Positions 8,215 through 52,959 of a stretch of 64,000 bases of DNA are shown here, piece after piece. A program made the position numbers and the translations under genes. The notes under the pieces are model-generated. The model was not told the DNA's origin and searched no databases. It saw nothing but the letters and a program-made list of their open reading frames with translations. The stretch lies in NCBI RefSeq assembly GCF_003018255.1, contig NZ_CP027440.1; one strand, given 5' to 3'. This DNA comes from Escherichia coli (GTDB lineage: Bacteria > Pseudomonadota > Gammaproteobacteria > Enterobacterales > Enterobacteriaceae). How positions within the stretch are numbered: position 1 is the first letter of the stretch; each line of letters starts with the position of its first letter.

Positions 8215-9099
8215 CTACTGCGCCAACGCCGCCAGCAGTTTAACCAGCGCGGGCGTCACCTGCTGCGTTTCATAAACAATATATAAGTCTGCCGGGATGC
8301 GTTCTTTGAGCGGACGGAATATGACACCGGGCCAGTTCATCTGCGCGTAGCTGTCCGCTATCAATGTGATACCAATACCCATACTGACCATGGCGAGTAC
8401 CGTTTGCGGTTCATTAACTTCGCGAATAACAACCGGTGAAAATCCCACCTGCTGGCAAACTCGCTGCAAAAAATCCCAGTCAGTGTACACGGGCGGCATT
8501 GTAACGAAATACTCGTCACGTAGCGCTTCCAGCGGGACGGTGGAAAATGATGAGAGATGATGCTCTTCAGGCATCGCCACCAGAAACGCCGATTCATGCA
8601 ACCGTAAGCTGGTAAAACCAGTCGGTGGTTCTGTCGCCATTCGCCAGATCCCGGCATCAAGTTCGCGGCGTTCCAGCAAGGCCATTTGCATCGCAGGCAT
8701 CTTTTCGCGAAACAGAACTTCAACGTTAGGATTTTCTCTAAGGAATCGCCGCATAACCGGGCGCATCCGTCCCCACATTGCCGTTCCCACAACCCCGAGT
8801 TCAATCCGCCCTGCTTCTCCCCGACCTATTTGTTCAACCCGAGCCAATACATTATTTGCATTCACCAACAATCGACGCGATTCTTCCATCAAGATTTTGC
8901 CCGCGTGTGTCAGTACGACGCTGCGCGAATGGCGAATAAAAAGCTGCGTGCCGAGTTGATTTTCCAGCTCTTTAATATGAATGCTGAGCGGAGGCTGAGA
9001 CATATTTAAACGCGCTGCTGCGCGACCAAAATGCAACTCTTCCGCTACGGCAAGAAAATAACGGAGCAACTTAAGATCTGTTCTGTATACGCGTTCCAT
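8215..9099 (-). CDS. xapR: LysR-family activator of the xanthosine operon, XapR (294 aa)
   Basis: ORF-track frame 8215..9114; start placed at ATG 9099 (MERVYRTDLKLLRYFLAVAEELHFGRAAARL...); N-terminal HTH. Confidence 0.9.
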   Translation of the reverse strand: MERVYRTDLKLLRYFLAVAEELHFGRAAARLNMSQPPLSIHIKELENQLGTQLFIRHSRSVVLTHAGKILMEESRRLLVNANNVLARVEQIGRGEAGRIELGVVGTAMWGRMRPVMRRFLRENPNVEVLFREKMPAMQMALLERRELDAGIWRMATEPPTGFTSLRLHESAFLVAMPEEHHLSSFSTVPLEALRDEYFVTMPPVYTDWDFLQRVCQQVGFSPVVIREVNEPQTVLAMVSMGIGITLIADSYAQMNWPGVIFRPLKERIPADLYIVYETQQVTPALVKLLAALAQ

Positions 9100-9139
9100 A
9101 ATTAAGTGCTCCATATAATAAATACATCGTATTAAATTA

Positions 9140-9298
9140 TCATGGCATAAAGTATTTCACCACCAGATATCCGACATACATAAACACAATGGATAATATA
9201 CCCGGCAATACATTTGGAACAGGAATAGGTAATCGCACGATTGTAAACAAAGCACCAATGCCAAAACCAACGCCAGAAGAAAATAAAATATCTTTCAC
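9140..9298 (-). CDS. Candidate unannotated small ORF (52 codons, GTG start), hydrophobic peptide
   Basis: Below the 60-aa ORF-track cutoff; read by hand: MKDILFSSGVGFGIGALFTIVRLPIPVPNVLPGILSIVFMYVGYLVVKYFMP; AGG 7 nt upstream of GTG; in-frame TAA two codons upstream; AT-rich so could be chance. Confidence 0.15.
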   Translation of the reverse strand: MKDILFSSGVGFGIGALFTIVRLPIPVPNVLPGILSIVFMYVGYLVVKYFMP

Positions 9299-9350
9299 TA
9301 ATTAACCTTTATCATAAAAGCAGCCCCAAGGAACAGAGCTGCGAATCCTT

Positions 9351-10607
9351 TTAATGTGTAACTGAACGATGCGTTATCTTTTCAGGGTCATGGTTATATT
9401 TAAACCCAAAGAAAAATATCACTGCGAGGAAAAGAGCATACCCTGCAAACATCAGCCAAATGGTATGCCAATCTTTTACGCCATCCACCGAGAAGTAATC
9501 CACTGCCATACCGCTCAGAATCGAGCCAACCCATGCGCCGACGCCATTTACCATCGTCATAAAAAGGCCCTGGGCGCTGGCACGAATGCTGGAATCAACT
9601 TCCTGTTCGACAAAGACCGAACCAGAAATATTGAAGAAATCGAATGCACAACCGTAAACAATCATCGACAGCAACAGCAAAATAAACCCGGTTGGTGATG
9701 GATCGCCATAGGCAAAGAAGCCAAAGCGCAGCGTCCACGCCACCATACTCATCAGCATGACGGTTTTAATACCGAAACGCTTCAAAAAGAACGGTATCGT
9801 CAGAATGAAACCGACTTCAGCCATCTGTGAAACTGACAGTAAAATGGACGGGTATTTCACCACGAAGCTATCAGCAAACTCAGGATTACGGGCGAAATCA
9901 TGCAGGAACGGGTTGCCAAAAACGTTGGTAATTTGCAGCACCGCACCCAGCATCATGGCGAAGAGGAAAAAGATAGCCATGCGTGGATTTTTAAACAGCA
10001 CGAAGGCATCCAGACCCAGCTTGCTGGCAAGCGATGTAGTCGCTTTTTTCTCCGCAACCGGAATCTTCGGCAAAGTCAGCGCATAAGCCGACAGCAGCAA
10101 TGACGCACCGGACGCGATATACAGCTGCAGACTACTCAATTCCAGATGCAGCAGGCTTACTGCCCACATGGCGACAATGAACCCCACCGTACCAAAAACG
10201 CGAATGGGCGGGAAAGCGGTCACCGGGTCAAGCCCTGCCTGGGCAAGACAGGAATAAGAGACGCTGTTCGATAACGCAATAGTCGGCATAAACGCCATCG
10301 CATTGACTAACATCACCCAAAACATCATATCCGGATCAGTTACGGATGCCGCATAAAAAAGTACGCCCGCACACACCAGGTGACACAGCATGTATGCACG
10401 TTCTGCACGCAGCCATTTGTCTGCGATGATCCCCATTATACCAGGCATAATAATCGCGGCGATCCCTTTGGAACTGTAAACCATGCCAACATTAGCGCCG
10501 GTGAAATGAAGGGTATTAATCATGTAAGAACCGAGGGTAACCAGCCAGCTCCCCCAGATAAAATATTGCAAAAAGGACATTACCTTTAAGCGCAAAGCGA
10601 TGCTCAT
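9351..10607 (-). CDS. xapB: Xanthosine:H+ symporter XapB (418 aa)
   Basis: ORF-track; multi-pass membrane protein MSIALRLKVMSFLQYFIWGSW..., paralogous to NupG-type transporters. Confidence 0.9.
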   Translation of the reverse strand: MSIALRLKVMSFLQYFIWGSWLVTLGSYMINTLHFTGANVGMVYSSKGIAAIIMPGIMGIIADKWLRAERAYMLCHLVCAGVLFYAASVTDPDMMFWVMLVNAMAFMPTIALSNSVSYSCLAQAGLDPVTAFPPIRVFGTVGFIVAMWAVSLLHLELSSLQLYIASGASLLLSAYALTLPKIPVAEKKATTSLASKLGLDAFVLFKNPRMAIFFLFAMMLGAVLQITNVFGNPFLHDFARNPEFADSFVVKYPSILLSVSQMAEVGFILTIPFFLKRFGIKTVMLMSMVAWTLRFGFFAYGDPSPTGFILLLLSMIVYGCAFDFFNISGSVFVEQEVDSSIRASAQGLFMTMVNGVGAWVGSILSGMAVDYFSVDGVKDWHTIWLMFAGYALFLAVIFFFGFKYNHDPEKITHRSVTH

Positions 10608-10667
10608 AATCGTTTCCTTGTCGCATCATATGGCCTCACTCAGTAAGGCCGTTTATTGTTGTTTTAC

Positions 10668-11501
10668 TCAGGCAATTTTGCGCAGAAAGCCGCAAATAAG
10701 ATTAATAAAGTTTTGCTTTGAGAGTTCCGCTGCTGCCAGCGTTTGGGCATGAGAAAGCTTCACGTCACTCAGACCTTCCGCCATGTTGGTAATCGCAGAG
10801 ACCGCAACGACTTTAAGTTCGCAATGGCGAGCTGAAATAACCTCAGGCACCACAGACATACCAACAACATCCCCACCAATAATTTGCATCATACGAATTT
10901 CCGCCGCAGTCTCGAAATTCGGCCCCGGATACGAGACGAACACGCCCTCCGTCAGAGGGAACCCCTCTTCTTTCGCCACTTTTTGTAACAGTGCGCGGTA
11001 TTCCGCATCGTAGGCATTCGCCAGCGAGAAGAAGCGCTCACCAAAACGTTCATCATTAAGACCCACCATCGGCGTTCCCGGCATGGTGTTGATGTGATCT
11101 TTCAATGCGACCAGACTGCCGGCCCCCACTTCAGGACGCAGTGAGCCAGCCGCATTGGTGCAGAACAGCAACTCGCAGCCCAGCAACTTAAAGGTACGGA
11201 TTGCATCCGTCATGATGGTCATCCCACGACCTTCGTAGAAATGTCCGCGACCTTTCATGCACGCCACTGGCACCCCCTGGAGATACCCCAGCACCAGCTC
11301 ACCCGCATGACCGTGTACGGTACTTACCGGGAACCCAGGCAGCTTTTCGTAGGAAATTGCGACCGCGTTCTCAATCTGATCGGCCAGCGCGCCCAGCCCG
11401 GAACCTAACATAAAGGCCACTCGTGGCGTGAAATCAGGTTTATAAGTCTTGATAATATCTACGCAATACAGTGGGTTATGAGAAAACTGAGCCTGAGACA
11501 T
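10668..11501 (-). CDS. xapA: Purine nucleoside phosphorylase II / xanthosine phosphorylase XapA (277 aa)
   Basis: ORF-track; MSQAQFSHNPLYCVDIIKTYKPDFTPRVAFMLGSGLG... PNP family. Confidence 0.95.
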   Translation of the reverse strand: MSQAQFSHNPLYCVDIIKTYKPDFTPRVAFMLGSGLGALADQIENAVAISYEKLPGFPVSTVHGHAGELVLGYLQGVPVACMKGRGHFYEGRGMTIMTDAIRTFKLLGCELLFCTNAAGSLRPEVGAGSLVALKDHINTMPGTPMVGLNDERFGERFFSLANAYDAEYRALLQKVAKEEGFPLTEGVFVSYPGPNFETAAEIRMMQIIGGDVVGMSVVPEVISARHCELKVVAVSAITNMAEGLSDVKLSHAQTLAAAELSKQNFINLICGFLRKIA

Positions 11502-11749
11502 ATATATCCTTTTTTTGTAGGGTGGAATCTAACGCCTTTTTATAACGAGATTGCCCTACCTCATACCAATACACTTTTTTCATGTATCCGATAGTTATTC
11601 GATATCGATATATTTATATTTTTTCACTATTAATAGGCTGAAAAAACTGTATTGGTACTCTCCTTTCCCTTGCATTAACAATATGCCGCTTTTAATCAAC
11701 CTTTTTATTAAGCAATCAACTAATAACGATCGGCATAGGGAATTATGCT

Positions 11750-12514
11750 ATGAAAAAACATCTTTTTACTCTGACACTCTCTTCTGTATTGGCGATACCA
11801 GCAGTATCCCATGCAGAATTTAAAGGCGGTTTTGCTGATATAGGTATTCATTATCTTGACTGGACTAGCAGAACCACTGAGAAATCGTCGACCAAATCAC
11901 ACAAAGATGATTTTGGATATCTGGAACTGGAAGGCGGCGCTAACTTTAGTTGGGGAGAAATGTACGGGTTCTTCGACTGGGAAAACTTTTATAATGATCG
12001 TCATGATAAACCGGGTAGCGAGCAGCGTTATACCTTTAAAAATACCAACCGTATTTACCTGGGTGACACCGGATTTAATCTCTACTTGCATGCGTATGGC
12101 ACCTACGGTTCTGCGAATCGCGTGAATTTCCATGACGATATGTTCCTTTACGGTATCGGCTACAATTTCACCGGCAGCGGTTGGTGGTTCAAACCGTTCT
12201 TTGCAAAACGCTATACAGACCAAACCTATTATACCGGCGATAACGGTTATGTCGCCGGTTGGGTTGCAGGTTACAGCTTTATGCTGGGCAGTGAGAAATT
12301 CACCCTCACCAACTGGAACGAGTACGAGTTTGATCGTGATGCCACCTACGCGGCAGGTAATGGCGGCAAAGAAGGTCTGAACGGTGCCGTCGCACTTTGG
12401 TGGAATGCAACTTCACACATCACCACAGGAATTCAGTATCGTTATGCGGATGACAAACTGGGCGAAGATTTTTACCAGGATGCAATAATCTACTCCATCA
12501 AATTTAATTTCTGA
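11750..12514 (+). CDS. yfeN: Putative outer-membrane protein YfeN (signal peptide; Tsx-like channel family as I recall)
   Basis: ORF-track; signal peptide MKKHLFTLTLSSVLAIPAVSHA, aromatic-rich beta-barrel-like sequence ending in F. Confidence 0.8.
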   Translation: MKKHLFTLTLSSVLAIPAVSHAEFKGGFADIGIHYLDWTSRTTEKSSTKSHKDDFGYLELEGGANFSWGEMYGFFDWENFYNDRHDKPGSEQRYTFKNTNRIYLGDTGFNLYLHAYGTYGSANRVNFHDDMFLYGIGYNFTGSGWWFKPFFAKRYTDQTYYTGDNGYVAGWVAGYSFMLGSEKFTLTNWNEYEFDRDATYAAGNGGKEGLNGAVALWWNATSHITTGIQYRYADDKLGEDFYQDAIIYSIKFNF

Positions 12515-12518
12515 TTGA

Positions 12519-12541
12519 TTACTGCCGGGGCTCCCGGCAGT
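12519..12541. terminator. GC-rich hairpin between convergent yfeN and yfeR (possible bidirectional terminator, no clear T-run)
   Basis: Stem ACTGCCGGG / CCCGGCAGT with 3-nt loop. Confidence 0.35.
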
Positions 12542-12551
12542 ATGAATAGCT

Positions 12552-13478
12552 CTATATCTGATACAGCGGATCCCCTTCCCGCCCAGCCATTAGCGCACGG
12601 CCCTGGCCTCGTACCACTTCCCATAACGCTTGTGCGGCGGTGGAAAGTGAACGGTTCTTCCTGCGCACCAGCATCAACTGGCGTTCCACCACCGGCGTAA
12701 TGCGCTTTACCACCAGCGGGCTACCTTCAGGTAACGGCAGCGCCAGTGCGGGAAGAATACTAATGCCGATGCCTGCGGCTACCATCGGGAACAGCGTCGC
12801 CGGATGACCAATCTCCTGCACAATATTCGCCTGAATACCGTTGCGCGCCAGAGCTGCGTCAATCAGCGGTCGGCTGCCTGACGCGTAATCCTGCAACACC
12901 AATTTCGCTCCCTGTAATGCCTGCCAGGGTACATAATCTTCCGCGGCTAAAGCGCTATCGCGATGGCAAAGCAAGAAGAAAGGCTCGGAAAGAATCGCTT
13001 CACATTGCAGATCGCTCACTGGGCCTGGATCGATGACGATGCCAAAATCGACATCTCCCTGGCGAATACTTTCCATCACCCACTGCTGCGGACGATCGTG
13101 CAGGACAAACTGAATATCGGGATAGCGGCGATGGCTTTCAGCAATGCATTGCGGAATAAGATGCGCGGAAATGGTCTGGCTGGCAGCGACCCGAACTTTT
13201 CCGCTCAGTTGTTGCCCCATACGCCCGGTATCGCGCAACGTGCTGTTAAGTTCATCCAGCAGTCGCTCAAGACGCAAAGCCAACTGCTGCCCTGCATCTG
13301 TAAGCACCACTTCACGCGTGGTTCTGTCCAGCAGGCGAACACCAGTATGATTTTCCAGCTCCTTCACACTGTGACTTACTGCCGACTGACTCAGGCCGAT
13401 ACGCTCTCCTGCACGACTAAAACTTTTCTCCTGCGCTACTGTGACGAAAACCTTTAATTGTTTTAAAGAATAATTCAT
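12552..13478 (-). CDS. yfeR: LysR-family transcriptional regulator YfeR (308 aa)
   Basis: ORF-track; [42 protein letters not shown]... LysR HTH. Confidence 0.88.
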
Positions 13479-13567
13479 CTGTTTTTTTCATGAATGGATG
13501 CAATAAATCAATTTTATTTCTCAAACTGGAAGAAGCACAATAGAACCATCGATCATCTGGAGTCTTT

Positions 13568-14566
13568 ATGAAACTTTTTCGTATCCTCGATCCTTTCACC
13601 TTAACCCTGATCACGGTGGTGTTGCTGGCCTCTTTCTTTCCGGCCAGAGGCGATTTCGTCCCCTTCTTTGAAAATCTGACCACTGCAGCGATTGCTCTGC
13701 TGTTCTTTATGCACGGCGCGAAGTTGTCGCGTGAGGCGATTATTGCTGGCGGTGGGCACTGGCGACTGCATTTGTGGGTAATGTGCAGCACCTTCGTATT
13801 GTTTCCGATTCTGGGCGTGCTGTTTGCCTGGTGGAAACCGGTAAATGTCGACCCGATGCTCTACTCCGGTTTTCTCTACTTGTGCATTCTCCCCGCTACC
13901 GTGCAGTCTGCAATCGCCTTTACTTCAATGGCGGGCGGTAACGTCGCGGCAGCGGTTTGTTCTGCGTCAGCATCCAGCCTGTTGGGGATTTTCCTTTCAC
14001 CATTGCTGGTTGGTCTGGTGATGAATGTTCACGGTGCGGGAGGCAGCCTTGAGCAGGTCGGTAAAATTATGCTGCAATTGCTACTGCCGTTTGTGTTGGG
14101 GCATCTTTCCCGGCCGTGGATTGGTGACTGGGTGTCGCGCAATAAAAAATGGATTGCGAAAACTGACCAGACGTCCATTCTGTTGGTGGTTTATACGGCA
14201 TTCAGCGAAGCCGTCGTTAACGGTATCTGGCACAAAGTTGGCTGGGGATCATTGCTGTTTATCGTGGTGGTCAGTTGCGTTCTTCTGGCTATCGTGATTG
14301 TAGTTAACGTCTTTATGGCACGCCGACTGGGCTTCAATAAGGCAGATGAAATTACTATCGTCTTTTGTGGTTCGAAAAAGAGTCTGGCAAATGGCATCCC
14401 GATGGCAAACATTCTGTTCCCCACATCGGTGATCGGTATGATGGTGCTGCCCCTGATGATTTTCCATCAGATCCAATTGATGGTCTGTGCGGTGCTGGCG
14501 CGTCGATACAAACGCCAGACCGAACAGTTACAGGCGCAGCAGGAAAGCAGCGCCGATAAAGCTTAA
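13568..14566 (+). CDS. yfeH: Putative bile acid:Na+ symporter (BASS) family inner-membrane protein YfeH (332 aa)
   Basis: ORF-track; polytopic membrane protein divergent from yfeR. Confidence 0.85.
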   Translation: MKLFRILDPFTLTLITVVLLASFFPARGDFVPFFENLTTAAIALLFFMHGAKLSREAIIAGGGHWRLHLWVMCSTFVLFPILGVLFAWWKPVNVDPMLYSGFLYLCILPATVQSAIAFTSMAGGNVAAAVCSASASSLLGIFLSPLLVGLVMNVHGAGGSLEQVGKIMLQLLLPFVLGHLSRPWIGDWVSRNKKWIAKTDQTSILLVVYTAFSEAVVNGIWHKVGWGSLLFIVVVSCVLLAIVIVVNVFMARRLGFNKADEITIVFCGSKKSLANGIPMANILFPTSVIGMMVLPLMIFHQIQLMVCAVLARRYKRQTEQLQAQQESSADKA

Positions 14567-14781
14567 AGCGGACGCTTCAGGGGCTGGACCAGTTGCGTCA
14601 GCCCCTCGGTTTTAATCAGCAGCGTGATTTGCATTAGCTCACCGAGCTTCCCTGCCGGGAACTCATCTTTGCGGGCAAACCACAGCAGATACTCCTCCGG
14701 CAGGTCGATTAAGCGACGCCCTTTGTACTTGCCAAACGGCATTATCGTATTGGCTATTTCAATCAGCTGCTCTTTTTCCAT
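14563..14781 (-). CDS. ypeB: Small conserved protein YpeB (72 aa, DUF3820-like)
   Basis: ORF-track frame 14563..14874; start placed at ATG 14781 (MEKEQLIEIANTIMPFGKYKGRRLIDLPEEY...), 1 nt downstream of the ligA stop. Confidence 0.8.
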   Translation of the reverse strand: MEKEQLIEIANTIMPFGKYKGRRLIDLPEEYLLWFARKDEFPAGKLGELMQITLLIKTEGLTQLVQPLKRPL

Positions 14782-14782
14782 C

Positions 14783-16807
<2,025 letters not shown>

Positions 16808-16868
16808 TCAATGCTAAAAACCCCCGACAAGCGGGGGTTCGAAGAGGAGTTAATTTGCCTTAAGTGTA

Positions 16869-17867
16869 TCAGGCGTTGGCGTCTTTGACTTCGCGGATGA
16901 TGTCCTGGTACTCGCGCAATTTCTGCGGAGTCATCATACGGCGCTGATCGTCAAGAACAACACCGCCCACTTCATCGGCAATATGCTGCGCAGATTGCAG
17001 CATCAGCTTGAAGTTCTGCAGCTCGTCACCGTAAGACGGTACCTGCATAAAGATAGTGACACCCGGAGTAGTGAAATCCTTCATTTCAGGATCAAAGGTT
17101 CCCGGTTTCACCATATTCGCCAGGCTAAATAACGCCGGGCCGCTGCCATCCGGGCTAAGATGACGATGGTAAATATTCATATCGCCAAAAATGAAGCCCG
17201 CTTGTTGAATGCTGTTAAGAAGCAGTTCACCGTTTAGCTCGCTACCGTGATGCGCCGCGACGTTCATGATAATCACCGCTTCTTTGCGCTTCGGTTTATC
17301 CATAACTGGAGCCGGTTCCGCTACAGGCTCAGGCTGTGGTGCCGCTACGGGTTCTGCAGGCTGGAAAGCCTGTTGTGCCGGTTGCGGTGCTGAATGCACT
17401 GGCTGCGGCGCTGGCGCGACCTGTGGCGAAACTGGCTGCTGCAACGGCTGTTCAGGCTGCGGCTGATAGGCAGGCTGCTGCACGGGTTGCTGCACCGGCT
17501 GCGCTGGACGCGGAGCATGTTGCGGCGGTACCTGCGCTTCAGGCGGCTGCTGGACCGGTTGACGCGGCTGCGCAGACGCATAAGGCGGTTGGTACTGGTG
17601 TTGCGGCGACGGACGAGCAGCCTCATGCTCCTGGGCGTTAGCCGGGGCATGATTCACGCGGTGAACTCGAACCTCACCAACGCCCTCATCATCTTCGACA
17701 TCCTCGTCATAAGAATCGTCGTCACGTTTTGACTTCATTCGTTTTAATGGCCGATCGCGGAACATAGAAGATCGTTCTTTACGGCTGGTCCAGAAACCAT
17801 GTACCAGTAAAGCGATTATGGCGATCGCGCCAACAATGATTAATATCAGACGCAAATCCTGCATCAT
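16869..17867 (-). CDS. zipA: Cell-division protein ZipA (332 aa in this sequence)
   Basis: ORF-track frame 16869..17918; start placed at ATG 17867 ([26 protein letters not shown]...); long P/Q-rich linker; FtsZ-binding C-terminal domain. Confidence 0.9.
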
Positions 17868-18096
17868 TATATTCTCTGTTGTTCTAACACCTTGCCACCA
17901 CGGCAAACATTTACTCACTAAGAGTATTTGCCGATTACCTCAAGTGCAAGTGCACTATTAACTTTCACAGCACAAAGATAGATGAAATCGTGCTTTTTGC
18001 TGTTTTTTCGAACATATCCTAACTGTCCATTGCGCAATTACCCGGTAAAATACGCAGAATTTTCCTGGGATTGGTCAAAAGGAGCTCATCCTGATT

Positions 18097-18858
18097 ATGG
18101 TTTCATCATTCACATCTGCCCCACGCAGCGGTTTTTACTATTTTGCGCAAGGCTGGAAGCTCGTCTCGCAACCTGGGATTCGGCGTTTCGTTATTTTACC
18201 GCTGCTGGTCAATATTTTGTTGATGGGGGGCGCATTCTGGTGGCTCTTTACGCAACTCGATGTCTGGATCCCGACTCTCATGAGTTATGTTCCGGACTGG
18301 TTACAATGGCTGAGCTATCTGTTGTGGCCTCTGGCTGTCATCTCTGTGCTGTTAGTGTTTGGCTATTTCTTCTCAACGATTGCTAACTGGATTGCCGCTC
18401 CGTTCAATGGTTTATTGGCTGAACAACTGGAAGCACGATTGACTGGCGCTACACCGCCAGATACCGGGATTTTCGGTATCATGAAAGATGTGCCGCGAAT
18501 CATGAAACGCGAATGGCAAAAATTTGCCTGGTATCTGCCGCGCGCAATTGTATTGCTAATTCTTTACTTCATCCCTGGTATTGGGCAAACCGTCGCGCCG
18601 GTACTGTGGTTCCTGTTTAGCGCCTGGATGTTAGCCATCCAGTATTGCGATTACCCCTTCGATAACCACAAAGTGCCGTTTAAAGAGATGCGCACCGCCC
18701 TGCGCACACGCAAAATCACCAATATGCAGTTTGGTGCTTTAACCAGCCTGTTTACGATGATCCCTCTGCTTAATCTGTTCATCATGCCCGTTGCCGTTTG
18801 TGGTGCGACGGCGATGTGGGTCGATTGCTATCGCGATAAACACGCGATGTGGCGGTAA
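18097..18858 (+). CDS. cysZ: Sulfate transporter CysZ (253 aa)
   Basis: ORF-track; [31 protein letters not shown]... Confidence 0.92.
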
Positions 18859-19042
18859 CAATCTACCGGTTATTTTGTAAACCGCTTGTGTGAAACAGGG
18901 GTGGCTTATGCCGCCCCTTATTCCATCTTGCATGTCATTATTTCCCTTCTGCATATAGATATGCTAAATCCTTACTTCCGCATATTCTCTGAGCGGGTAT
19001 GCTACCTGTTGTATCCCAATTTCATACAGTTAAGGACAGGCC

Positions 19043-20014
19043 ATGAGTAAGATTTTTGAAGATAACTCGCTGACTATCGGTCACACGCCGCTGGTTCGCC
19101 TGAATCGCATCGGTAACGGACGCATTCTGGCGAAGGTGGAATCTCGTAACCCCAGCTTCAGCGTTAAGTGCCGTATCGGTGCCAACATGATTTGGGATGC
19201 CGAAAAGCGCGGCGTGCTGAAACCAGGCGTTGAACTGGTTGAACCAACCAGCGGTAATACCGGGATTGCACTGGCCTATGTCGCTGCCGCTCGCGGTTAC
19301 AAACTCACCCTGACTATGCCAGAAACCATGAGTATTGAACGCCGCAAGCTGCTGAAAGCGTTAGGTGCAAACCTGGTGCTGACCGAAGGTGCTAAAGGCA
19401 TGAAAGGCGCAATCCAAAAAGCAGAAGAAATTGTCGCCAGCAATCCAGAGAAATACCTGCTGCTGCAACAATTCAGCAATCCGGCAAACCCTGAAATTCA
19501 CGAAAAAACCACCGGTCCGGAGATCTGGGAAGATACCGACGGTCAGGTTGATGTATTTATTGCTGGCGTTGGGACTGGCGGTACGCTGACTGGCGTCAGC
19601 CGCTACATTAAAGGCACCAAAGGCAAGACTGATCTTATATCTGTCGCCGTTGAGCCAACCGATTCTCCAGTTATCGCCCAGGCGCTGGCAGGTGAAGAGA
19701 TTAAACCTGGTCCGCATAAAATTCAGGGTATTGGCGCTGGTTTTATCCCGGCTAACCTTGATCTCAAGCTGGTCGACAAAGTCATTGGCATCACCAATGA
19801 AGAAGCCATTTCTACCGCACGTCGTCTGATGGAAGAAGAAGGTATTCTTGCTGGTATCTCTTCTGGAGCAGCTGTTGCTGCGGCGTTGAAACTACAAGAA
19901 GATGAAAGCTTTACCAATAAGAATATTGTGGTTATTCTGCCGTCATCGGGTGAGCGTTATTTAAGCACTGCATTGTTTGCCGATCTTTTCACTGAGAAAG
20001 AACTGCAACAGTAA
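19043..20014 (+). CDS. cysK: O-acetylserine sulfhydrylase A / cysteine synthase A (323 aa)
   Basis: ORF-track; [44 protein letters not shown]... PLP-lysine motif. Confidence 0.97.
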
Positions 20015-20035
20015 TGCCAGCTTGTAAAAAATGCG

Positions 20036-20065
20036 TAAAAAAGCACCTTTTCAGGTGCTTTTTTG
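20036..20065 (+). terminator. Intrinsic terminator downstream of cysK
   Basis: Stem AGCACCT / AGGTGCT with loop TTTC followed by TTTTTT. Confidence 0.7.
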
Positions 20066-20397
20066 TGGCCTGCTTCAAACTTTCGCCCCTCCTGGCATTG
20101 ATTCAGCCTGCCGGAACTGGTATTTAACCAGACTAATTATTTTGATGCGCGAAATTAATCGTTACAGGAAAAGCCAAAGCTGAATCGATTTTATGATTTG
20201 GTTCAATTCTTCCTTTAGCGGCATAATGTTTAATGACGTACGAAACGTCAGCGGTCAACACCCGCCAGCAATGGACTGTATTACGCTCTTCGTGCGTCGC
20301 GTCTGTTAAAAACTGGCGCTAACAATACAGGCTAAAGTCGAACCGCCAGGCTAGACTTTAGTTCCACAACACTAAACCTATAAGTTGGGGAAATACA

Positions 20398-20655
20398 ATG
20401 TTCCAGCAAGAAGTTACCATTACCGCTCCGAACGGTCTGCACACCCGCCCTGCTGCCCAGTTTGTAAAAGAAGCTAAGGGCTTCACTTCTGAAATTACTG
20501 TGACTTCCAACGGCAAAAGCGCCAGCGCGAAAAGCCTGTTTAAACTGCAGACTCTGGGCCTGACTCAAGGTACCGTTGTGACTATCTCCGCAGAAGGCGA
20601 AGACGAGCAGAAAGCGGTTGAACATCTGGTTAAACTGATGGCGGAACTCGAGTAA
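20398..20655 (+). CDS. ptsH: PTS phosphocarrier protein HPr (85 aa)
   Basis: ORF-track; [29 protein letters not shown]... His15 site. Confidence 0.97.
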
Positions 20656-20699
20656 TTTCCCGGGTTCTTTTAAAAATCAGTCACAAGTAAGGTAGGGTT

Positions 20700-22427
20700 A
20701 TGATTTCAGGCATTTTAGCATCCCCGGGTATCGCTTTCGGTAAAGCTCTGCTTCTGAAAGAAGACGAAATTGTCATTGACCGGAAAAAAATTTCTGCCGA
20801 CCAGGTTGATCAGGAAGTTGAACGTTTTCTGAGCGGTCGTGCCAAGGCATCAGCCCAGCTGGAAACGATCAAAACGAAAGCTGGTGAAACGTTCGGTGAA
20901 GAAAAAGAAGCCATCTTTGAAGGGCATATTATGCTGCTCGAAGATGAGGAGCTGGAGCAGGAAATCATAGCCCTGATTAAAGATAAGCACATGACAGCTG
21001 ACGCAGCTGCTCATGAAGTTATCGAAGGTCAGGCTTCTGCCCTGGAAGAGCTGGATGATGAATACCTGAAAGAACGTGCGGCTGACGTACGTGATATCGG
21101 TAAGCGCCTTCTGCGCAACATCCTGGGCCTGAAGATTATCGACCTGAGCGCCATTCAGGATGAAGTCATTCTGGTTGCCGCTGATCTGACGCCGTCCGAA
21201 ACCGCACAGCTGAACCTGAAGAAGGTGCTGGGTTTCATCACCGACGCGGGTGGCCGTACTTCCCACACCTCTATCATGGCGCGTTCTCTGGAACTGCCTG
21301 CTATCGTGGGTACCGGTAGCGTCACCTCTCAGGTGAAAAATGACGACTATCTGATTCTGGATGCCGTAAATAATCAGGTTTACGTCAATCCAACCAACGA
21401 AGTTATTGATAAAATGCGCGCTGTTCAGGAGCAAGTGGCTTCTGAAAAAGCAGAGCTTGCTAAACTGAAAGATCTGCCAGCTATTACGCTGGACGGTCAC
21501 CAGGTAGAAGTGTGCGCTAACATTGGTACGGTTCGTGACGTTGAAGGTGCAGAGCGTAACGGCGCTGAAGGCGTTGGTCTGTATCGTACTGAGTTCCTGT
21601 TCATGGACCGCGACGCGCTGCCCACTGAAGAAGAACAGTTTGCTGCTTACAAAGCAGTGGCTGAAGCGTGTGGCTCGCAGGCGGTTATCGTTCGTACCAT
21701 GGACATCGGCGGCGACAAAGAGCTGCCATACATGAACTTCCCGAAAGAAGAGAACCCGTTCCTCGGCTGGCGCGCTATCCGTATCGCGATGGACCGTAAA
21801 GAGATCCTGCGCGATCAGCTCCGCGCTATCCTGCGTGCCTCGGCTTTCGGTAAATTGCGCATTATGTTCCCGATGATCATCTCTGTTGAAGAAGTACGTG
21901 CACTGCGCAAAGAGATCGAAATCTACAAACAGGAACTGCGCGACGAAGGTAAAGCGTTTGACGAGTCAATTGAAATCGGCGTAATGGTGGAAACACCGGC
22001 TGCCGCAACAATTGCACGTCATTTAGCCAAAGAAGTTGATTTCTTTAGTATCGGCACCAATGATTTAACGCAGTACACTCTGGCAGTTGACCGTGGTAAT
22101 GATATGATTTCACACCTTTACCAGCCAATGTCACCGTCCGTGCTGAACTTGATCAAGCAAGTTATTGATGCTTCTCATGCTGAAGGCAAATGGACTGGCA
22201 TGTGTGGTGAGCTTGCAGGCGATGAACGTGCTACACTTCTGTTGCTGGGGATGGGTCTGGACGAATTCTCTATGAGCGCCATTTCTATCCCGCGCATTAA
22301 GAAGATTATCCGTAACACGAACTTCGAAGATGCGAAGGTGTTAGCAGAGCAGGCTCTTGCTCAACCGACAACGGACGAGTTAATGACGCTGGTTAACAAG
22401 TTCATTGAAGAAAAAACAATCTGCTAA
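20700..22427 (+). CDS. ptsI: PTS Enzyme I (575 aa)
   Basis: ORF-track; [30 protein letters not shown]..., phospho-His motif GGRTSHTSI. Confidence 0.97.
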
Positions 22428-22467
22428 TCCACGAGATGCGGCCCAATTTACTGCTTAGGAGAAGATC

Positions 22468-22977
22468 ATGGGTTTGTTCGATAAACTGAAATCTCTGGTT
22501 TCCGACGACAAGAAGGATACCGGAACTATTGAGATCATTGCTCCGCTCTCTGGCGAGATCGTCAATATCGAAGACGTGCCGGATGTCGTTTTTGCGGAAA
22601 AAATCGTTGGTGATGGCATTGCTATCAAACCAACTGGAAACAAAATGGTCGCGCCTGTAGACGGCACCATTGGTAAAATCTTTGAAACCAACCACGCGTT
22701 CTCTATCGAATCTGATAGCGGCGTTGAACTGTTCGTCCACTTCGGTATCGACACCGTTGAACTGAAAGGCGAAGGCTTCAAGCGTATTGCTGAAGAAGGT
22801 CAGCGCGTGAAAGTTGGCGATACTGTCATTGAATTTGATCTGCCGCTGCTGGAAGAGAAAGCCAAGTCTACCCTGACTCCGGTTGTTATCTCCAACATGG
22901 ACGAAATCAAAGAACTGATCAAACTGTCCGGTAGCGTGACTGTGGGTGAAACCCCGGTTATCCGCATCAAGAAGTAA
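22468..22977 (+). CDS. crr: PTS glucose-specific EIIA component Crr (169 aa)
   Basis: ORF-track; [39 protein letters not shown]... Confidence 0.97.
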
Positions 22978-22990
22978 TTCTTGCCGCAGT

Positions 22991-23020
22991 GAAAAATGGC
23001 GCCCATCGGCGCCATTTTTT
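22991..23020. terminator. Bidirectional intrinsic terminator between crr and pdxK
   Basis: Stem ATGGCGCC / GGCGCCAT with loop CATC, flanked by A-run and T-run; the pdxK stop codon overlaps the T-run. Confidence 0.75.
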
Positions 23021-23870
23021 ATGCTTCCGCCAGCGGCGGCAAAATCAATTCATCGCTCTCATGCTGCTGGGTGTAGCGCATCACTTCCAGTACGCGCAAC
23101 CCCGCACGGTGCACCGCATCGTTTAACGCCTTCCCTTTCAGCAAACCACTGATAAGCTGAGCACAAAACAGGTCGCCAGTCCCTTTCAGGTCGGTTTTTA
23201 CCCGTGAATGGGAAATGACATTCACGCTGTCGGCACTGACCACCACCACCTGCATCTCCTGATTTTCTTCATTACCGGAGGCGCTGGTAATCACCACCCA
23301 TTTTAATGTGTCTGAAAGCAGACTTTTTGCGGCAGCAATGGCACTGTCGAGATCGCGGCAATTTTTACCGGTCAGGATTTCCAGCTCAAAAATATTGGGG
23401 GTAATTCCCTGCGCCAGCGGCAGTAAATATTGTCGATACGCCTCGGGAAGGTCAGGTTTGACATAAATTCCGCTATCAATATCGCCAATCACTGGATCGA
23501 CCATGATCAATAGGTCAGGATGGTCTTTGCGTAGCGCAGTCAGCCACTCGGCAAGGATTTTGATTTGCGATGACGTTCCCATATAGCCCGTGGTTACAGC
23601 ACGAAGTTGGCGCAACGCATCACGCTCCTGAAGCGCACGCAAATAGCCGCTAAACCATTCGTCCGGAATCGCACCACCGTAGAAAGTGTCATAATGCGGT
23701 GTATTGCTCAGCAATACCGTCGGCACGGCAAAGACATTCAGGCCGTTCTGTTTTATAGCAGGCACCGCAATGCTGTTGCCTACGCTGCCGTACACTACCT
23801 GCGACTGCACGGCGACGATATCCGCCTGCAATGCCCTGCTCTTATCGTTAAACAACAACAAACTACTCAT
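23019..23870 (-). CDS. pdxK: Pyridoxal/pyridoxine/pyridoxamine kinase PdxK (283 aa)
   Basis: ORF-track; [44 protein letters not shown]... Confidence 0.92.
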
Positions 23871-23883
23871 TTAATTTTTTCTC

Positions 23884-23949
<66 letters not shown>

Positions 23950-23974
23950 CACAAAACAAGGATAAGGTAATTCA

Positions 23975-24343
23975 ATGAAGAAAATCATTTGTCTGGTCAT
24001 TACGCTGCTAATGACACTCCCCGTTTACGCGAAGTTAACTGCCCATGAAGAAGCCCGTATCAACGCCATGCTGGAGGGATTAGCACAGAAAAAGGATTTG
24101 ATATTTGTGCGTAACGGCGATGAACATACCTGCGATGAAGCGGTTTCCCACCTGCGTCTGAAGCTCGGCAATACCCGTAACCGCATTGACACTGCCGAGC
24201 AGTTTATTGATAAGGTAGCCTCGTCGTCATCGATTACCGGGAAGCCGTATATCGTGAAGATGCCCGGTAAAAGCGATGAGAACGCACAACCTTTTTTACA
24301 TGCGCTGATTGCGCAGACGGATAAAACGGTGCCTGCGCAATAA
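23975..24343 (+). CDS. yfeK: Uncharacterised secreted protein YfeK (122 aa)
   Basis: ORF-track; signal peptide [19 protein letters not shown]. Confidence 0.8.
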
Positions 24344-24345
24344 TC

Positions 24346-25257
24346 TTAAATCCCCGCCCCCTGGCTAAAATGCTCTTCCCCAAACACCCCGGTAGAAAGG
24401 TAGCGATCGCCGCGATCGCAGATGATCGCCACAACCACCGCGCCGGGGTTAGCTTTTGCCACGCGCAGTGCTCCGGCAACCGCGCCGCCGGAGCTGACGC
24501 CACAGAATATTCCTTCCCGCACTGCCAGCTCGCGCATGGTGTTTTCCGCATCGCGCTGATGAATATCCAGCACTTCATCCACCAGCGAAGCGTTGAAAAT
24601 CCCTGGCAGATATTCCGCAGGCCAGCGGCGAATGCCGGGAATGCTACTGCCCTCTTCCGGCTGCAGGCCAACAATGGTCACCGGTTTGGATTGTTCGCGC
24701 ATAAAGCGTGACACACCGGTAATGGTGCCGGTCGTCCCCATACTGGAGACAAAATGCGTAATGCGCCCGCCAGTTTGCTGCCAGATTTCCGGCCCGGTGG
24801 TGGTGTAATGGGCGAAGGGATTATCAGGATTATTGAACTGATCGAGCAGCTTTCCTTCACCACGATTGGCCATCTCCAGCGCCAGATCGCGCGCGCCTTC
24901 CATGCCCTGCTCTTTGGTGACAAGAATCAGTTCCGCACCGTATGTCAGCATCGCTGCACGGCGCTCCTGGCTCATGTTGTCGGGCATCAGCAATTTCATG
25001 CGATAGCCTTTAAGCGCGGCAATCATTGCCAGCGCAATGCCGGTGTTACCACTGGTGGCTTCGATCAGCACGTCACCCGGTTTAATTTCCCCGCGCTTTT
25101 CCGCCTCAACGATCATCGAAAGTGCCGCACGATCTTTTACCGAACCTGCCGGGTTATTGCCTTCCAGTTTCAACCAGACTTCACTGCCGTTATTCGGCCC
25201 CATTCGCTGCAACTTCACCAGAGGCGTATTGCCAATTGTTTGTTCTAATGTACTCAC
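24346..25257 (-). CDS. cysM: O-acetylserine sulfhydrylase B / cysteine synthase B (303 aa)
   Basis: ORF-track; MSTLEQTIGNTPLVKLQRMGPNNGSEVWLKLEGNNPAGSVKDRAAL... Confidence 0.95.
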   Translation of the reverse strand: MSTLEQTIGNTPLVKLQRMGPNNGSEVWLKLEGNNPAGSVKDRAALSMIVEAEKRGEIKPGDVLIEATSGNTGIALAMIAALKGYRMKLLMPDNMSQERRAAMLTYGAELILVTKEQGMEGARDLALEMANRGEGKLLDQFNNPDNPFAHYTTTGPEIWQQTGGRITHFVSSMGTTGTITGVSRFMREQSKPVTIVGLQPEEGSSIPGIRRWPAEYLPGIFNASLVDEVLDIHQRDAENTMRELAVREGIFCGVSSGGAVAGALRVAKANPGAVVVAIICDRGDRYLSTGVFGEEHFSQGAGI

Positions 25258-25280
25258 GATCTATGTCCATACGTGGTGTT

Positions 25281-25316
25281 GCCTGATGCGACGCTTGCGC
25301 GTCTTATCAGGCCTAC
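25281..25316. repeat. REP (repetitive extragenic palindromic) element
   Basis: GCCTGATGCGACGCTTGCGCGTCTTATCAGGCCTAC, the typical E. coli REP palindrome, in the cysA-cysM spacer. Confidence 0.65.
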
Positions 25317-25336
25317 AGGTTACAAACCTTGCCATT

Positions 25337-25372
25337 AAAAAGCCCGGATCGCGGGAAGCGCCTCCGGGCGTT
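25337..25372 (-). terminator. Hairpin plus U-run between cysA and cysM (possible intra-operon attenuator)
   Basis: On the minus strand, stem GCCCGGA / TCCGGGC with 14-nt loop followed by TTTTT, 20 nt after the cysA stop. Confidence 0.45.
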
Positions 25373-25390
25373 TAACATTCACTCAACCTA

Positions 25391-26488
25391 TCAGGCGCTT
25401 TGTGCGAGAGCAAGTTCCTCATCGCGGGTTTCAATACGCTCGTCGCCGTTATACAGCCGCGCATGTTGCAGACCAACGAATAAACGCTCGCCACGCTGCG
25501 GGGCATCGTCGCCATGCATCACAACCGTCAGCGGTTCGTTGTACCACCCCAGCGGCTGCACGACTAATTGGGTGTAGTGGCCTTTCGGGCTGGCTTCCAG
25601 TACCTGTACCGGCAGCGGCGAATCGAGGCTGGTACGGCGGCTGATATCCACTTCCCACGGGCGCAGGAAGAGATCCACCGGCCCCTGATAAGCAGGTGTG
25701 TAGCCCAGCGGCCAGCGATGTGCGCCAACATGGAACTGCCCGCCGCGAATGGTTCCCTGCAGGCGGTTCACTTCGCCCATAAATTCGAGCACAAAGCGGG
25801 TCGCTGGTTCGCGCCATACCTGATCCGGCGCATCAGCCTGCTCGATATTGCCCTGGCTCATCACCACTACACGATCGGCTACTTCGGTCGCTTCTTCCTG
25901 GTCATGGGTCACGAATACGCTGGTAAATTTCAGTTCTTCATGCAGTTGACGCAACCAGCGACGCAGCTCTTTACGCACCTGCGCATCCAGCGCGCCAAAC
26001 GGTTCATCAAGCAGCAGAATTTGCGGTTCCACAGCCAGCGCACGCGCCAGCGCCACGCGCTGTTTCTGCCCGCCGGAAAGCTGTGCCGGATAACGATCCG
26101 CCAGATGCGCAAGCTGGACCATCTCCAGCAATTTTGTCACTTTCGCTTTGATGGCTGCGGCATTCGGGCGCTCGCGACGCGGCAGCACCGTCAGGCCGAA
26201 AGCGATATTGTCGAATACCGTCATATGGCGGAACAGCGCGTAATGCTGAAACACGAAACCGACTTTACGATCGCGCGCATGCAGGCGGCTGACGTCGGTG
26301 CCGTGGAAGCGAATATGCCCGCTGGTTTGATGCTCCAGCCCGGCGATAATCCGCAGCAGCGTGGTTTTCCCGGAACCGGACGGCCCCAGCAACGCGACCA
26401 TCTGACCAGAAGGAATATCCAGCGAGATATCGTTCAGCACCTGGGTGCGACCAAAAGACTTCTTAATATTGGCAATCTCAATGCTCAT
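25391..26488 (-). CDS. cysA: Sulfate/thiosulfate ABC transporter ATPase CysA (365 aa)
   Basis: ORF-track; Walker [13 protein letters not shown] signature [15 protein letters not shown]. Confidence 0.96.
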
Positions 26489-27353
26489 GATGTTCCTCCT
26501 GCTGCGCGCGTTTTTCCTGATTCTCCAGGCGCCACTGCAACATACTCTTTAAAAACAGGGTGATAATCGCCATCAGCGTCAACAACGCAGCGGCGGTAAA
26601 GGAGCCGACGGTGTTGTAGTCCTGCTCCAGCAATTCAATCTGTAGCGGCAGCGAAAGTGTTTCGCCGCGAATCGAGCCGGAAACCACCGACACCGCGCCA
26701 AACTCGCCAATTGCGCGGGCGTTGGTCAGCACCACGCCGTAAAGCAGCGCCCAGCGGATGTTCGGCAGCGTGACGCGACGGAACATCTGCCAGCCGGACG
26801 CGCCAAGTAAAATCGCCGCTTCGTCTTCCTGGCTGCCCTGACTTAACATTACCGGTACCAGTTCGCGCACCACAAACGGACACGTCACGAAGATGGTGAC
26901 CAGCACCATACCCGGCCAGGAGAACATAATTTGCAGATTATGTTCATCCAGCCAGCCGCCCAGCGGGCCGTTAGAGCCGTAGAACAGCAGATACACCAGA
27001 CCAGCAACCACCGGCGACACGGCAAACGGAATGTCCAGCAGCGTCAGCAATAGCTGGCGTCCGGGGAAGTTAAAGCGCGTCACCAGCCAGGCCAGCAGAA
27101 TGCCGAACACCAGGTTTACCGGTACGGCAATCAGCGCGATCATCACCGTCAGCCAGATGGCGTGCAGCATGTCCGGATCGGCCAGATTTTGTAACACCGG
27201 CATCAGTCCTTTGCTGAACGCCTGTACGAAGATATAAATCATCGGCACCAGCAGGATGAACGCCGATACCAGCATCCCGATGCCAATCAGAAACCATTTG
27301 CCCCAGTTAATCGGGCGCGCGTCATAACGCTTCAATTGTGTCACTTCCGCCAT
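26478..27353 (-). CDS. cysW: Sulfate/thiosulfate ABC transporter permease CysW (291 aa)
   Basis: ORF-track; overlaps the cysA start by 11 nt. Confidence 0.95.
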
Positions 27354-28186
27354 TAATGACCTACCACACGCCGACCAAAGCGACTTTGCAGAGTGTTAAT
27401 TGAGAACAGCAACAGCAGCGATGCCGCGAGGATCACCGAGGCAATCGCGCTCGCCGCCGGGTAATCAAACTCCTGTAAGCGAACAAAGATCATCAGCGAC
27501 GTCACTTCTGTTTTCCAGGCGATATTCCCGGCGATAAAAATCACCGCGCCAAACTCACCGAGGCTGCGGGTAAACGACAGCGCCACACCCGCCACCAGCG
27601 CCGGAGATAGTTCCGGCAGCACCACTTTGCGAAAACTCTGCCAGCGTGTTGCGCCGAGCGTTTCTGCCGCCTCTTCATATTCCGGGCCTAACTCTTCCAG
27701 CACCGGCTGCACGGTGCGCACCACAAACGGAATGCTGGTAAAGGCCATCGCCACCGCAATCCCCAGCCAGGTATAGGTGACTTTGATATCAAACTTCGCC
27801 AGCCATTCACCGTAAAAACCGTTCACGGAAAAGAGCGAGGCCAGCGTTAAACCGGCGACTGCCGTTGGCAGCGCAAAGGGTAAATCCATCAGCGCATCAA
27901 GCAGCGTGCGACCCGGAAAGCGATAGCGGGTTAAGATCCACGCCATCAGCAGACCGAAAACGCCGTTAAAAATCGATGCCACAAACGCCGACAGCAGCGT
28001 CACTTTATAGGCTGCGACCACCTGCGGGTTGGTGATCACCTCCCAGTACTGCGCCCAGCTCATCTGGGCCAGTTGCATCACCAGCGCGGAGAGCGGCAGC
28101 AGCAAAATCAGGCACACAAACAGCAGACTGGTGCCGAGGCTTAAGGTAAAGCCCGGCAGCACGCGTCTTGAAGAAACTGCAAACAT
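27353..28186 (-). CDS. cysU: Sulfate/thiosulfate ABC transporter permease CysU/CysT (277 aa)
   Basis: ORF-track; 1-nt overlap with cysW. Confidence 0.95.
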   Translation of the reverse strand: MFAVSSRRVLPGFTLSLGTSLLFVCLILLLPLSALVMQLAQMSWAQYWEVITNPQVVAAYKVTLLSAFVASIFNGVFGLLMAWILTRYRFPGRTLLDALMDLPFALPTAVAGLTLASLFSVNGFYGEWLAKFDIKVTYTWLGIAVAMAFTSIPFVVRTVQPVLEELGPEYEEAAETLGATRWQSFRKVVLPELSPALVAGVALSFTRSLGEFGAVIFIAGNIAWKTEVTSLMIFVRLQEFDYPAASAIASVILAASLLLLFSINTLQSRFGRRVVGH

Positions 28187-29202
28187 TACTTACGCCCCGC
28201 CGCTAACAGCTTGTCTAACTCGCCGCCGCTGGTGAAGTGGGTTTTCATCACTTCCGGCCAGGAGCCAAATTTATCTTCCACGCGGAACAGCTCGGTCTGC
28301 GGGAATTTATCTTTCAGTTTGCCCATGACTTCCGGGTTATTTACGCGGTAGTAATAGTCGGTGATGATGGTTTGCGCCTGCGGGCTGTAGAGCCAGTTCA
28401 GGTAGGCTTTTGCCGCTTTTTCCGTGCCGTTGGCCTGTACGTTTTTATCCACCCACGCCACCGGGAATTCCGCCAGAATGTTGGTTTTCGGAATCACCAC
28501 TTCAAAGCCCTGCGCTTCATACTGTTTACGGATGTTGTTCACTTCCGACTCGAAGCTGATCAGCACATCGCCCAGGCCGCGCTCGGCAAAAGTGGTGGTC
28601 GCGCCACGACCGCCAGTATCGAACACTTCAACGTTTTTCAGGAACTGGGTCATAAACTGTTCGGTTTTGGCTTTATCACCACCGTCGGCTTTGTCCGCTG
28701 CGCCCCATGCCGCAAGGTAGGTATAACGCGCGTTACCCGACGTTTTCGGGTTCGGGAAAATCAGCTTCACGTCAGAGCGTACCAGGTCGTTCCAGTCGTG
28801 GATATTCTTTGGGTTGCCCTTACGCACCAGGAAGCCCATGGTGGAGTAGAACGGCGAGCTATTATTCGGCAGGCGCGACTGCCAGTCCGCTGGGATCAGC
28901 TTGCCTTTATCGTGCAGGATTTGTACGTCGGTCACCTGGTTATAAGTGACAACGTCGGCTTTTAAACCCTGCAAAATTGCCAGCGCCTGTTTTGATGATC
29001 CGGCATGAGATTGTTTAATCGTCAGTTTGTCGCCACCGTTATCTTTTGCCCATTGTTGCTCAAACGGCGGGTTCAGGGCGGCAAACAGCTCGCGGGAGAC
29101 GTCATAAGAACTGTTCAGCAGTTCCGTTGCCTGTACATGGCCCGCCAGTAGCAGAGAAGCAACCAGCACGAGTGAGTTCTTTTTCAGTAAGTTAACGGCC
29201 AT
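28186..29202 (-). CDS. cysP: Periplasmic thiosulfate-binding protein CysP (338 aa)
   Basis: ORF-track; signal peptide then [16 protein letters not shown]...; 1-nt overlap with cysU. Confidence 0.95.
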
Positions 29203-52159: not shown

Positions 52160-52959
52160 TGCGTTTCCCCCAGTCGTTGTTGGATCTGCTTCACCGTTAG
52201 CGACTGCTTCGTTACGCTCAGGATCATCATCACGTAAACCGTGCTGGAAAGGCGGTTCAGCGCCTGCAAGATGTCCGGGCGTAATACTTCAAAGCTGCGG
52301 GTGATAAACACCTGCGCCGCTACAGTTTCGGTTTCCCGCACTTTGGTGCGTAGCAGATTGAGCAACGCCGCATCACGCCCGTGGCTGGCTTCCGGCACCA
52401 GATGATCGTGGTCGAGATAGCGCAGCGGCTGGTGAGAAAGCCGATGCAGATCTTCGTCAGAAAGCCCGACAATCGCTTGTTCGCCCAGCGGTTCCCCCAG
52501 CGCATCGGCGCGCATAATGTTGCCAAGACGCGAACGGATATCCGCCAGCCACGGCTGCCACGGTTCCGCCAGTTCAATTTGCAGCCACACTGCCAGCGCA
52601 ATGGTGCTGTCGAGAACAGCGCGAAAAGCCAGGCGCGGATCGCTTTTGGCAACCATTTTTTCCGCCGACAGGTGAGTCAGCGTATCCGGCTTTTTTGCCA
52701 CCGGCTGGCGGCACAGTTCGCAGCACGCCTGCGGATGTTCATCGCTACTGGTTAGCCCGTGAACGGGCTGCGGCTGCTGCTGTTCATCGTCAACAAACAG
52801 GCGGCCCTGCTCGTCAATAAACTTGATGCGCAGATGGCGGCTTTCCAGTAACTCCCGGGCAGAGGGCGTCAGGCGACTGTCCGCAGGGAGATGGATCTCT
52901 GCGCCTTCGCTGAGCGTATGATTCGCTCTTAGCCATGCTTCGGTGATGAAATCTTTCAT
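52156..52959 (-). CDS. eutT: Corrinoid adenosyltransferase EutT (267 aa)
   Basis: ORF-track; 4-nt overlap with eutD. Confidence 0.9.

Follow-up and report, generated by a model that had tools for sequence, protein, structure and literature searches.

In Escherichia coli K-12, the cell division protein ZipA is laid out as a transmembrane segment (residues 7-28), a charged region (29-85), a PQ domain (86-185) and a globular domain (186-328) (PMC6904479). The PQ domain is regarded as a predicted unstructured, flexible tether (PMC6904479, citing Ohashi et al. 2002), and the structural data of PMC6904479 itself argue for a conformation less extended than that of a peptide ranging freely.

Two described systems come closest to the variation reported here for this tether. 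At contingency loci, which are phase-variable tandem repeats, strands slip at short direct repeats and copy number changes as a result, as we propose for the linker-coding part of zipA. The C-terminal unstructured linker of FtsZ resembles that of ZipA in being the flexible tether of a division protein, with a poorly conserved sequence and a length that varies between species. These properties of the FtsZ linker were reportedly described by Gardner et al. and by Buske and Levin, both in 2013.

Here, we analyzed the zipA gene of an E. coli window, that is, the whole stretch of 64,000 nucleotides under study, in which a 12-bp tandem repeat had been noticed in the linker. The zipA gene of this window is the ordinary two-unit allele encoding 332 aa, and we consider it likely that the K-12 form results from a contraction in the K-12-type lineage.

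Identification of the zipA gene and its linker

The gene and the domains of its product were delimited as follows.

16869..17867, minus strand: zipA coding sequence, cell division protein ZipA, 999 nt, 332 aa plus stop (open reading frame and translation)
17784..17849, minus strand: N-terminal transmembrane anchor, residues 7-28, 22 residues (hydrophobic stretch seen in the translation, limits as in PMC6904479)
17301..17612, minus strand: P/Q-rich linker, residues 86-189 here, corresponding to 86-185 in K-12 numbering (composition, limits as in PMC6904479)
16905..17276, minus strand: C-terminal FtsZ-binding domain, residues 198-321 (Pfam PF04354, ZipA_C, E = 3.2e-46)

The RefSeq annotations of genes 99-100% identical to this one use the same ATG, giving a protein that begins with MMQDLRL. 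An open reading frame of 349 aa, starting at an upstream in-frame GTG, is listed for the same frame; all the RefSeq records examined start at MMQDLRL. The ZipA_C domain was matched with a score of 156.8 bits, far above the cut-off of 23, and residues 29-85, rich in K, R, D and E, form the charged region. The gene lies between ligA (14783..16798, minus strand) and cysZ (18097..18858, plus strand), and the order ligA-zipA-cysZ is conserved in the RefSeq annotation of the syntenic region. All the features expected of a ZipA protein were found: the ZipA_C domain, the anchor followed by the charged region and the P/Q linker, and orthology with conserved synteny. The original prediction, which placed the repeat of zipA in the P/Q tether that joins the membrane anchor to the FtsZ-binding domain, agrees with the position of ZipA_C and with the published layout. 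From the presence of identical alleles in thousands of viable isolates, we infer that this protein would bind the FtsZ C-terminal peptide and support division.

Analysis of the linker composition revealed 32 prolines and 26 glutamines, which together make up 58 of the 105 residues of the analyzed stretch. Its G+C content reaches 66%, versus 52.7% for the window, and is thus elevated but not extreme, contrary to what had been claimed. The accompanying claim of several overlapping open reading frames on both strands was borne out by four entries of the open reading frame list, spanning 66-112 aa.

17336..17641, plus strand: unannotated open reading frame overlapping the linker
17266..17466, plus strand: unannotated open reading frame overlapping the linker
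17345..17650, minus strand: unannotated open reading frame overlapping the linker
17394..17732, plus strand: unannotated open reading frame overlapping the linker

No feature besides zipA is annotated across the linker region in any RefSeq record examined, and these four frames are probably spurious by-products of a stop-poor, G+C-rich sequence.

The 12-bp repeat

The repeat was read directly on the plus strand and its units were placed on the coding strand by alignment of the alleles.

17475..17498, plus strand: the two 12-mers of the original prediction, CTGCTGCACGGG then TTGCTGCACCGG (direct reading)
17484..17495, minus strand: repeat unit 1, GTGCAGCAACCC on the coding strand, V125 Q126 Q127 P128, without counterpart in K-12-type alleles (allele alignment)
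17472..17483, minus strand: repeat unit 2, GTGCAGCAGCCT on the coding strand, V129 Q130 Q131 P132, identical to the single unit of K-12-type alleles (allele alignment)

Both 12-mers were present as first described, one base to the left of the positions originally given (17476-17499). The coding strand reads CCG GTG CAG CAA CCC GTG CAG CAG CCT, that is, P124 V Q Q P128 V Q Q P132, within the P/Q linker. In the register GTGCAGCAACCC followed by GTGCAGCAGCCT, the two mismatches between the units, CAA/CAG and CCC/CCT, are both synonymous, and registers with a match of at least 10/12 start at any position in 17471..17479. Instead of the array of near-identical, detectable units that characterizes a tandem-repeat locus, the site holds two units identical at 10 of 12 bases, and Tandem Repeats Finder, run on zipA with a minimum score of 30, reported no repeat.

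A 12-bp tandem of at least 10/12 arises in 28% of codon-shuffled linkers. Adjacent 12-mers matching at 10 or more of their 12 bases occur at seven places in the window, versus 1.3 in block shuffles. As a bare pattern, the repeat is therefore not beyond chance. Comparison of natural alleles shows the 12-bp unit to be real, as the indel that separates them is precisely this unit. Elsewhere in the window, the same chance-level scan also returned adjacent 12-mer pairs matching at 11/12, located at 27511-27534 (TTTTCCAGGCGA/TATTCCCGGCGA) and 52478-52501 (TGTTCGCCCAGC/GGTTCCCCCAGC).

Comparison with reference alleles

The ZipA protein of the window is identical over all 332 residues, both PVQQ units included, to the RefSeq ZipA of O157 (WP_001299866.1), and its gene differs from that of O157 strain AR-0430 at 4 of 999 bases. 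An exact-sequence look-up assigned it to the UniRef cluster represented by ZIPA_SHIDS, which belongs to the same 90% cluster as ZIPA_ECOLI, and located it on at least 1,000 contigs. The K-12 protein, ZIPA_ECOLI, has 328 aa with one PVQQ unit, so that the difference of four residues given in the original prediction was correct. Reference ZipA sequences of 332 aa with a duplicated PVQQ, which the original prediction had named as evidence against its own reading, do exist, as WP_001299866.1 and the ZIPA_SHIDS cluster illustrate. The two-unit, 332-aa ZipA is an ordinary allele, already known at the sequence level through these long-standing reference entries. Our literature search found no description of polymorphism in the zipA linker, and the papers that pair zipA with an indel were unrelated.

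With K-12, the window shares the gene, its synteny and the domain order of the protein (transmembrane anchor, charged region, P/Q linker, ZipA_C). The two differ in that K-12 lacks the 12-bp GTGCAGCAACCC encoding VQQP and carries H120 where the window has R120, and the genes show 6 base differences in ungapped columns. The whole zipA gene of the window was found 100% identical in strain 2014C-3338. Strain 200164, which matches the surrounding 20 kb best, is annotated with the same protein. For positions 9000-29000 of the window, identity over these 20 kb peaks at 99.3% among complete E. coli genomes, with no more than 15 records at 99% or above. The window may derive from a Shigella, the ZIPA_SHIDS cluster being named after Shigella dysenteriae, or from an E. 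coli lineage that lacks a complete genome. A search of the window for long repeats and IS copies, made to test a Shigella origin, yielded none.

Distribution of unit number in complete E. coli genomes

Unit number was determined in a set of 5,426 complete genomes of E. coli, of which 5,425 gave a match to the whole zipA gene. In an evenly spaced sample of 40, the match spanned 1,000 bp in 17 genomes and 988 bp in 22. The queries used to assign unit number had no 28-base word in common with an allele of another unit number. A junction-specific 57-mer for the two-unit state matched 2,071 genomes at a coverage of at least 80%, including O157:H7 EDL933, O55:H7 and EC958, and a 45-mer for the one-unit state matched 3,036, among them a BL21-derived T7 Express strain. 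With a 120-nt query, 2,384 records aligned without the 12-bp gap (identity of at least 95%) and 3,042 with it, the latter including MG1655, AB1157, NEB 5-alpha and O111:H8; about 70 records showed less than 80% coverage of this 120-nt linker query. Approximately 313 two-unit genomes had been missed by the first 57-mer, their unit 1 ending in CAA CCT and not CAA CCC. This CAA-CCT two-unit allele gave 265 exact matches, including Nissle 1917, ATCC 25922, LF82, NRG 857C and ABU 83972.

Counting the linker units across E. coli strains, the check proposed along with the original prediction, thus yielded one, two and three units. Two units are carried by about 2,340-2,380 genomes (~44%), such as O157:H7, O55:H7, ST131, E2348/69, Nissle and ATCC 25922, and one unit by about 3,040 (~56%), including K-12, BL21-derived and O111:H8 strains. 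The suggestion that the 332-aa form is unusual did not survive this count. Three units (336 aa) were seen in one genome of the 5,426, a figure resting on the top hit alone, a single 69-nt piece, and not on a count, as the three-unit query also joined overlapping pieces of two-unit alleles to full coverage. The remaining states at the site, larger in-frame linker deletions (295 aa, 303 aa) among them, amount to ~1%.

Unit number follows lineage, with two units in O157, ST131, E2348/69 and Nissle and one in the K-12, BL21-derived and O111:H8 strains, which we take to belong to phylogroups A and B1. Two zipA matches fell on plasmid-typed records and one genome of the 5,426 had no match. The gene is considered essential, and these cases are probably assembly or labelling issues.

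Other length variants of the linker

Four further alleles document changes at this site or in its vicinity.

L096:447-1457: zipA of strain 700481 (NZ_CM129038.1), 336 aa, with a third PVQQ unit that repeats unit 1, GTGCAGCAACCC, without a mismatch
L010:447-1433: zipA of KE55, 328 aa, single unit GTGCAGCAACCT with a CAA-CCT junction, found in 5 genomes
L002:202-1089: zipA of EM10-18-28, 295 aa, 111-bp in-frame linker deletion flanked by the 8-nt repeat CAGCAGCC
L093:586-1497: zipA of PCP06021, 303 aa, 75-bp in-frame linker deletion with 4-nt microhomology

The gene of strain 700481 shows 0-2 differences from the O157 allele, and its third unit appears to be a genuine recent expansion at the site. 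The KE55 allele reads as a 12-bp loss in a register and haplotype background other than those of K-12. An additional two-unit form, the ESDR8-type allele (332 aa, ~29 genomes), has CAG CCC in unit 1. The genes of EM10-18-28 and PCP06021 are intact and annotated despite 25-37 missing linker residues, which indicates that changes in linker length are tolerated, as anticipated; microhomology of 4-8 nt accompanies both deletions. Judged by these alleles together, misalignment at short direct repeats acts on the zipA linker in both directions. Beyond E. coli, the ZipA proteins of Citrobacter and other Enterobacteriaceae range from 320 to 343 aa, with a linker of widely varying length between conserved N- and C-terminal parts.

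Direction of the change

The original prediction had proposed a slipped-strand expansion relative to K-12. A change of the slippage type is consistent with the occurrence of one, two and three units and with the microhomology at the deletions, whereas the polarity was probably wrong: we infer that E. coli probably started from the two-unit state and that K-12 carries a 12-bp contraction.

First, the alleles of the window, O157, ST131 and E2348/69 show the same two synonymous differences between their units, which places the two-unit state before the divergence of these lineages. A fresh duplication gives identical units, as observed in strain 700481. Secondly, K-12 agrees with unit 2 of the two-unit allele at every base, both in its unit and in the 3′ flank, and its sequence is reproduced exactly when 12 nt are removed in any frame that begins inside the shared GTGCAGCA. 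Thirdly, in more distant Escherichia the site holds at least two units, which recur every 18 bp (QPVQQP).

L015:1501-2460: 'E. coli' SCPM-O-B-8794 (non-coli Escherichia lineage), 2 QPVQQP units, GTG CAG CAA CCG CAG CCA GTA CAG CAG CCG
L014:1501-2478: Escherichia sp. E1V33 (non-coli Escherichia lineage), 3 QPVQQP units at the homologous site

Two degenerate units were found in E. albertii. In all three, CAA is present in the upstream unit, and in the last unit the final glutamine is encoded by CAG. Finally, in a neighbor-joining tree built on 840 ungapped zipA columns, with only 5-10 differences among the alleles of a species that recombines, the one-unit alleles of K-12 and O111:H8 form a terminal group inside the two-unit alleles; the one-unit KE55 allele, with its CAA-CCT junction, falls in another clade.

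The alternative that withstands this evidence best retains the slipped-strand expansion of a single PVQQ, with the 328-aa K-12 form ancestral and the 332-aa form derived. Such a duplication would have to be ancient, preceding the split between the ST131/E2348/69 and O157 lineages. It is favored by the single unit, GGG CAG CAA CCG, of Escherichia sp. MOD1-EC7003, at 95% identity the closest of the outgroups recovered, in a comparison that did not include E. fergusonii and left Shigella genomes outside. Moreover, two alleles lie one step from a perfect duplicate on one side and one step from the window allele on the other, CAG-CCC in ~29 genomes and CAA-CCT in at least 265, and could represent steps after a duplication. 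The three-unit allele shows that expansion happens at this site. Against it stand the two synonymous differences common to divergent lineages, the CAA-first/CAG-last signature also seen in distant Escherichia with two or three units, and the nesting of one-unit alleles inside two-unit alleles. In addition, no perfect two-unit duplicate occurred among the alleles sequenced here, in which no search was aimed at one. Taken together, we regard an ancient expansion as unlikely.

Contraction from two units remains our preferred reading, and the following course of events would account for the alleles. The two-unit state is old and looks like what is left of a Q-P-V-Q-Q-P array whose copy number is variable within the genus Escherichia. 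The short, imperfect in-frame repeat, GTGCAGCAACCC then GTGCAGCAGCCT, encodes VQQP VQQP. During replication, the 8-nt direct repeats GTGCAGCA ... GTGCAGCA may occasionally slip or misalign, which would delete or add one 12-bp unit in frame. One contraction would have generated the 328-aa allele of the K-12, BL21-derived and O111:H8 strains, a separate contraction in another register the 328-aa allele of the KE55 type, and one expansion the 336-aa allele. Slippage as the mechanism by which units are lost or gained is suggested by the allele sequences.

Consequences for the ZipA tether

Changes in unit number are most likely neutral or nearly so, because they occur in frame and in the linker between the anchor and the FtsZ-binding domain. 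A change of four residues in a tether of ~100 residues should alter its reach by a few percent. Schoenemann et al. of the Margolin laboratory reportedly found the ZipA linker to be dispensable in 2020 (J Bacteriol), and we give this no weight here.

A functional role for unit number, by contrast with neutrality, would mean that the number of PVQQ units (1, 2, 3), or linker length, tunes the reach of the ZipA tether or FtsZ bundling under lineage-specific selection, or that the site acts as a mutable switch of the contingency type. The alleles do follow lineage for the most part, repeated changes at the site have led to one unit (in two registers), two units and three units, and copy number differs between related species. 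Neutral descent also predicts sorting by lineage, however, and the locus offers only two imperfect units, invisible to Tandem Repeats Finder; every change is in frame and leaves expression unswitched, alleles with three units are extremely rare, with one found, and annotated genes stay intact after losing 25-37 linker residues. Four residues are also little within a tether of this length that is predicted to be unstructured (PMC6904479). We therefore hold selection on unit number to be very improbable; if it were true, the near-fixed one-unit state of the K-12, BL21-derived and O111:H8 strains would reflect adaptation and not descent.

The reading that the source genome underwent a recent expansion of its own, or carries an artefact of sequencing or assembly, has practically no chance of being correct: nothing beyond the four-residue difference from K-12 speaks for it, the gene is found unaltered in strain 2014C-3338 and the protein on at least 1,000 contigs, and it was rejected as the 120-nt stretch and the 57-mer occur unchanged in many independent complete genomes.

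The biological weight of the two-unit allele is small, since the finding arises from treating K-12 as the norm of the species. In practice, ZipA residue numbers beyond 124 are offset by 4 when K-12-type strains are compared with those of the O157, ST131 or Nissle type. The natural linker series (295, 303, 328, 332 and 336 aa) could also be used to relate tether length to division.

Comparison with known systems

Contingency loci combine frequent copy number change within a lineage with the switching of expression, and neither was observed at zipA. In contrast to these loci, zipA has two imperfect 12-bp units whose changes always preserve the frame, with no on/off switching, and its variation tracks lineage instead of arising within clones.

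The FtsZ linker differs from this tether in belonging to another protein and in that its length limits are reported from engineered variants, whereas the present analysis of ZipA covers natural variation only. The variable ZipA linkers of Enterobacteriaceae behave like the FtsZ linker.
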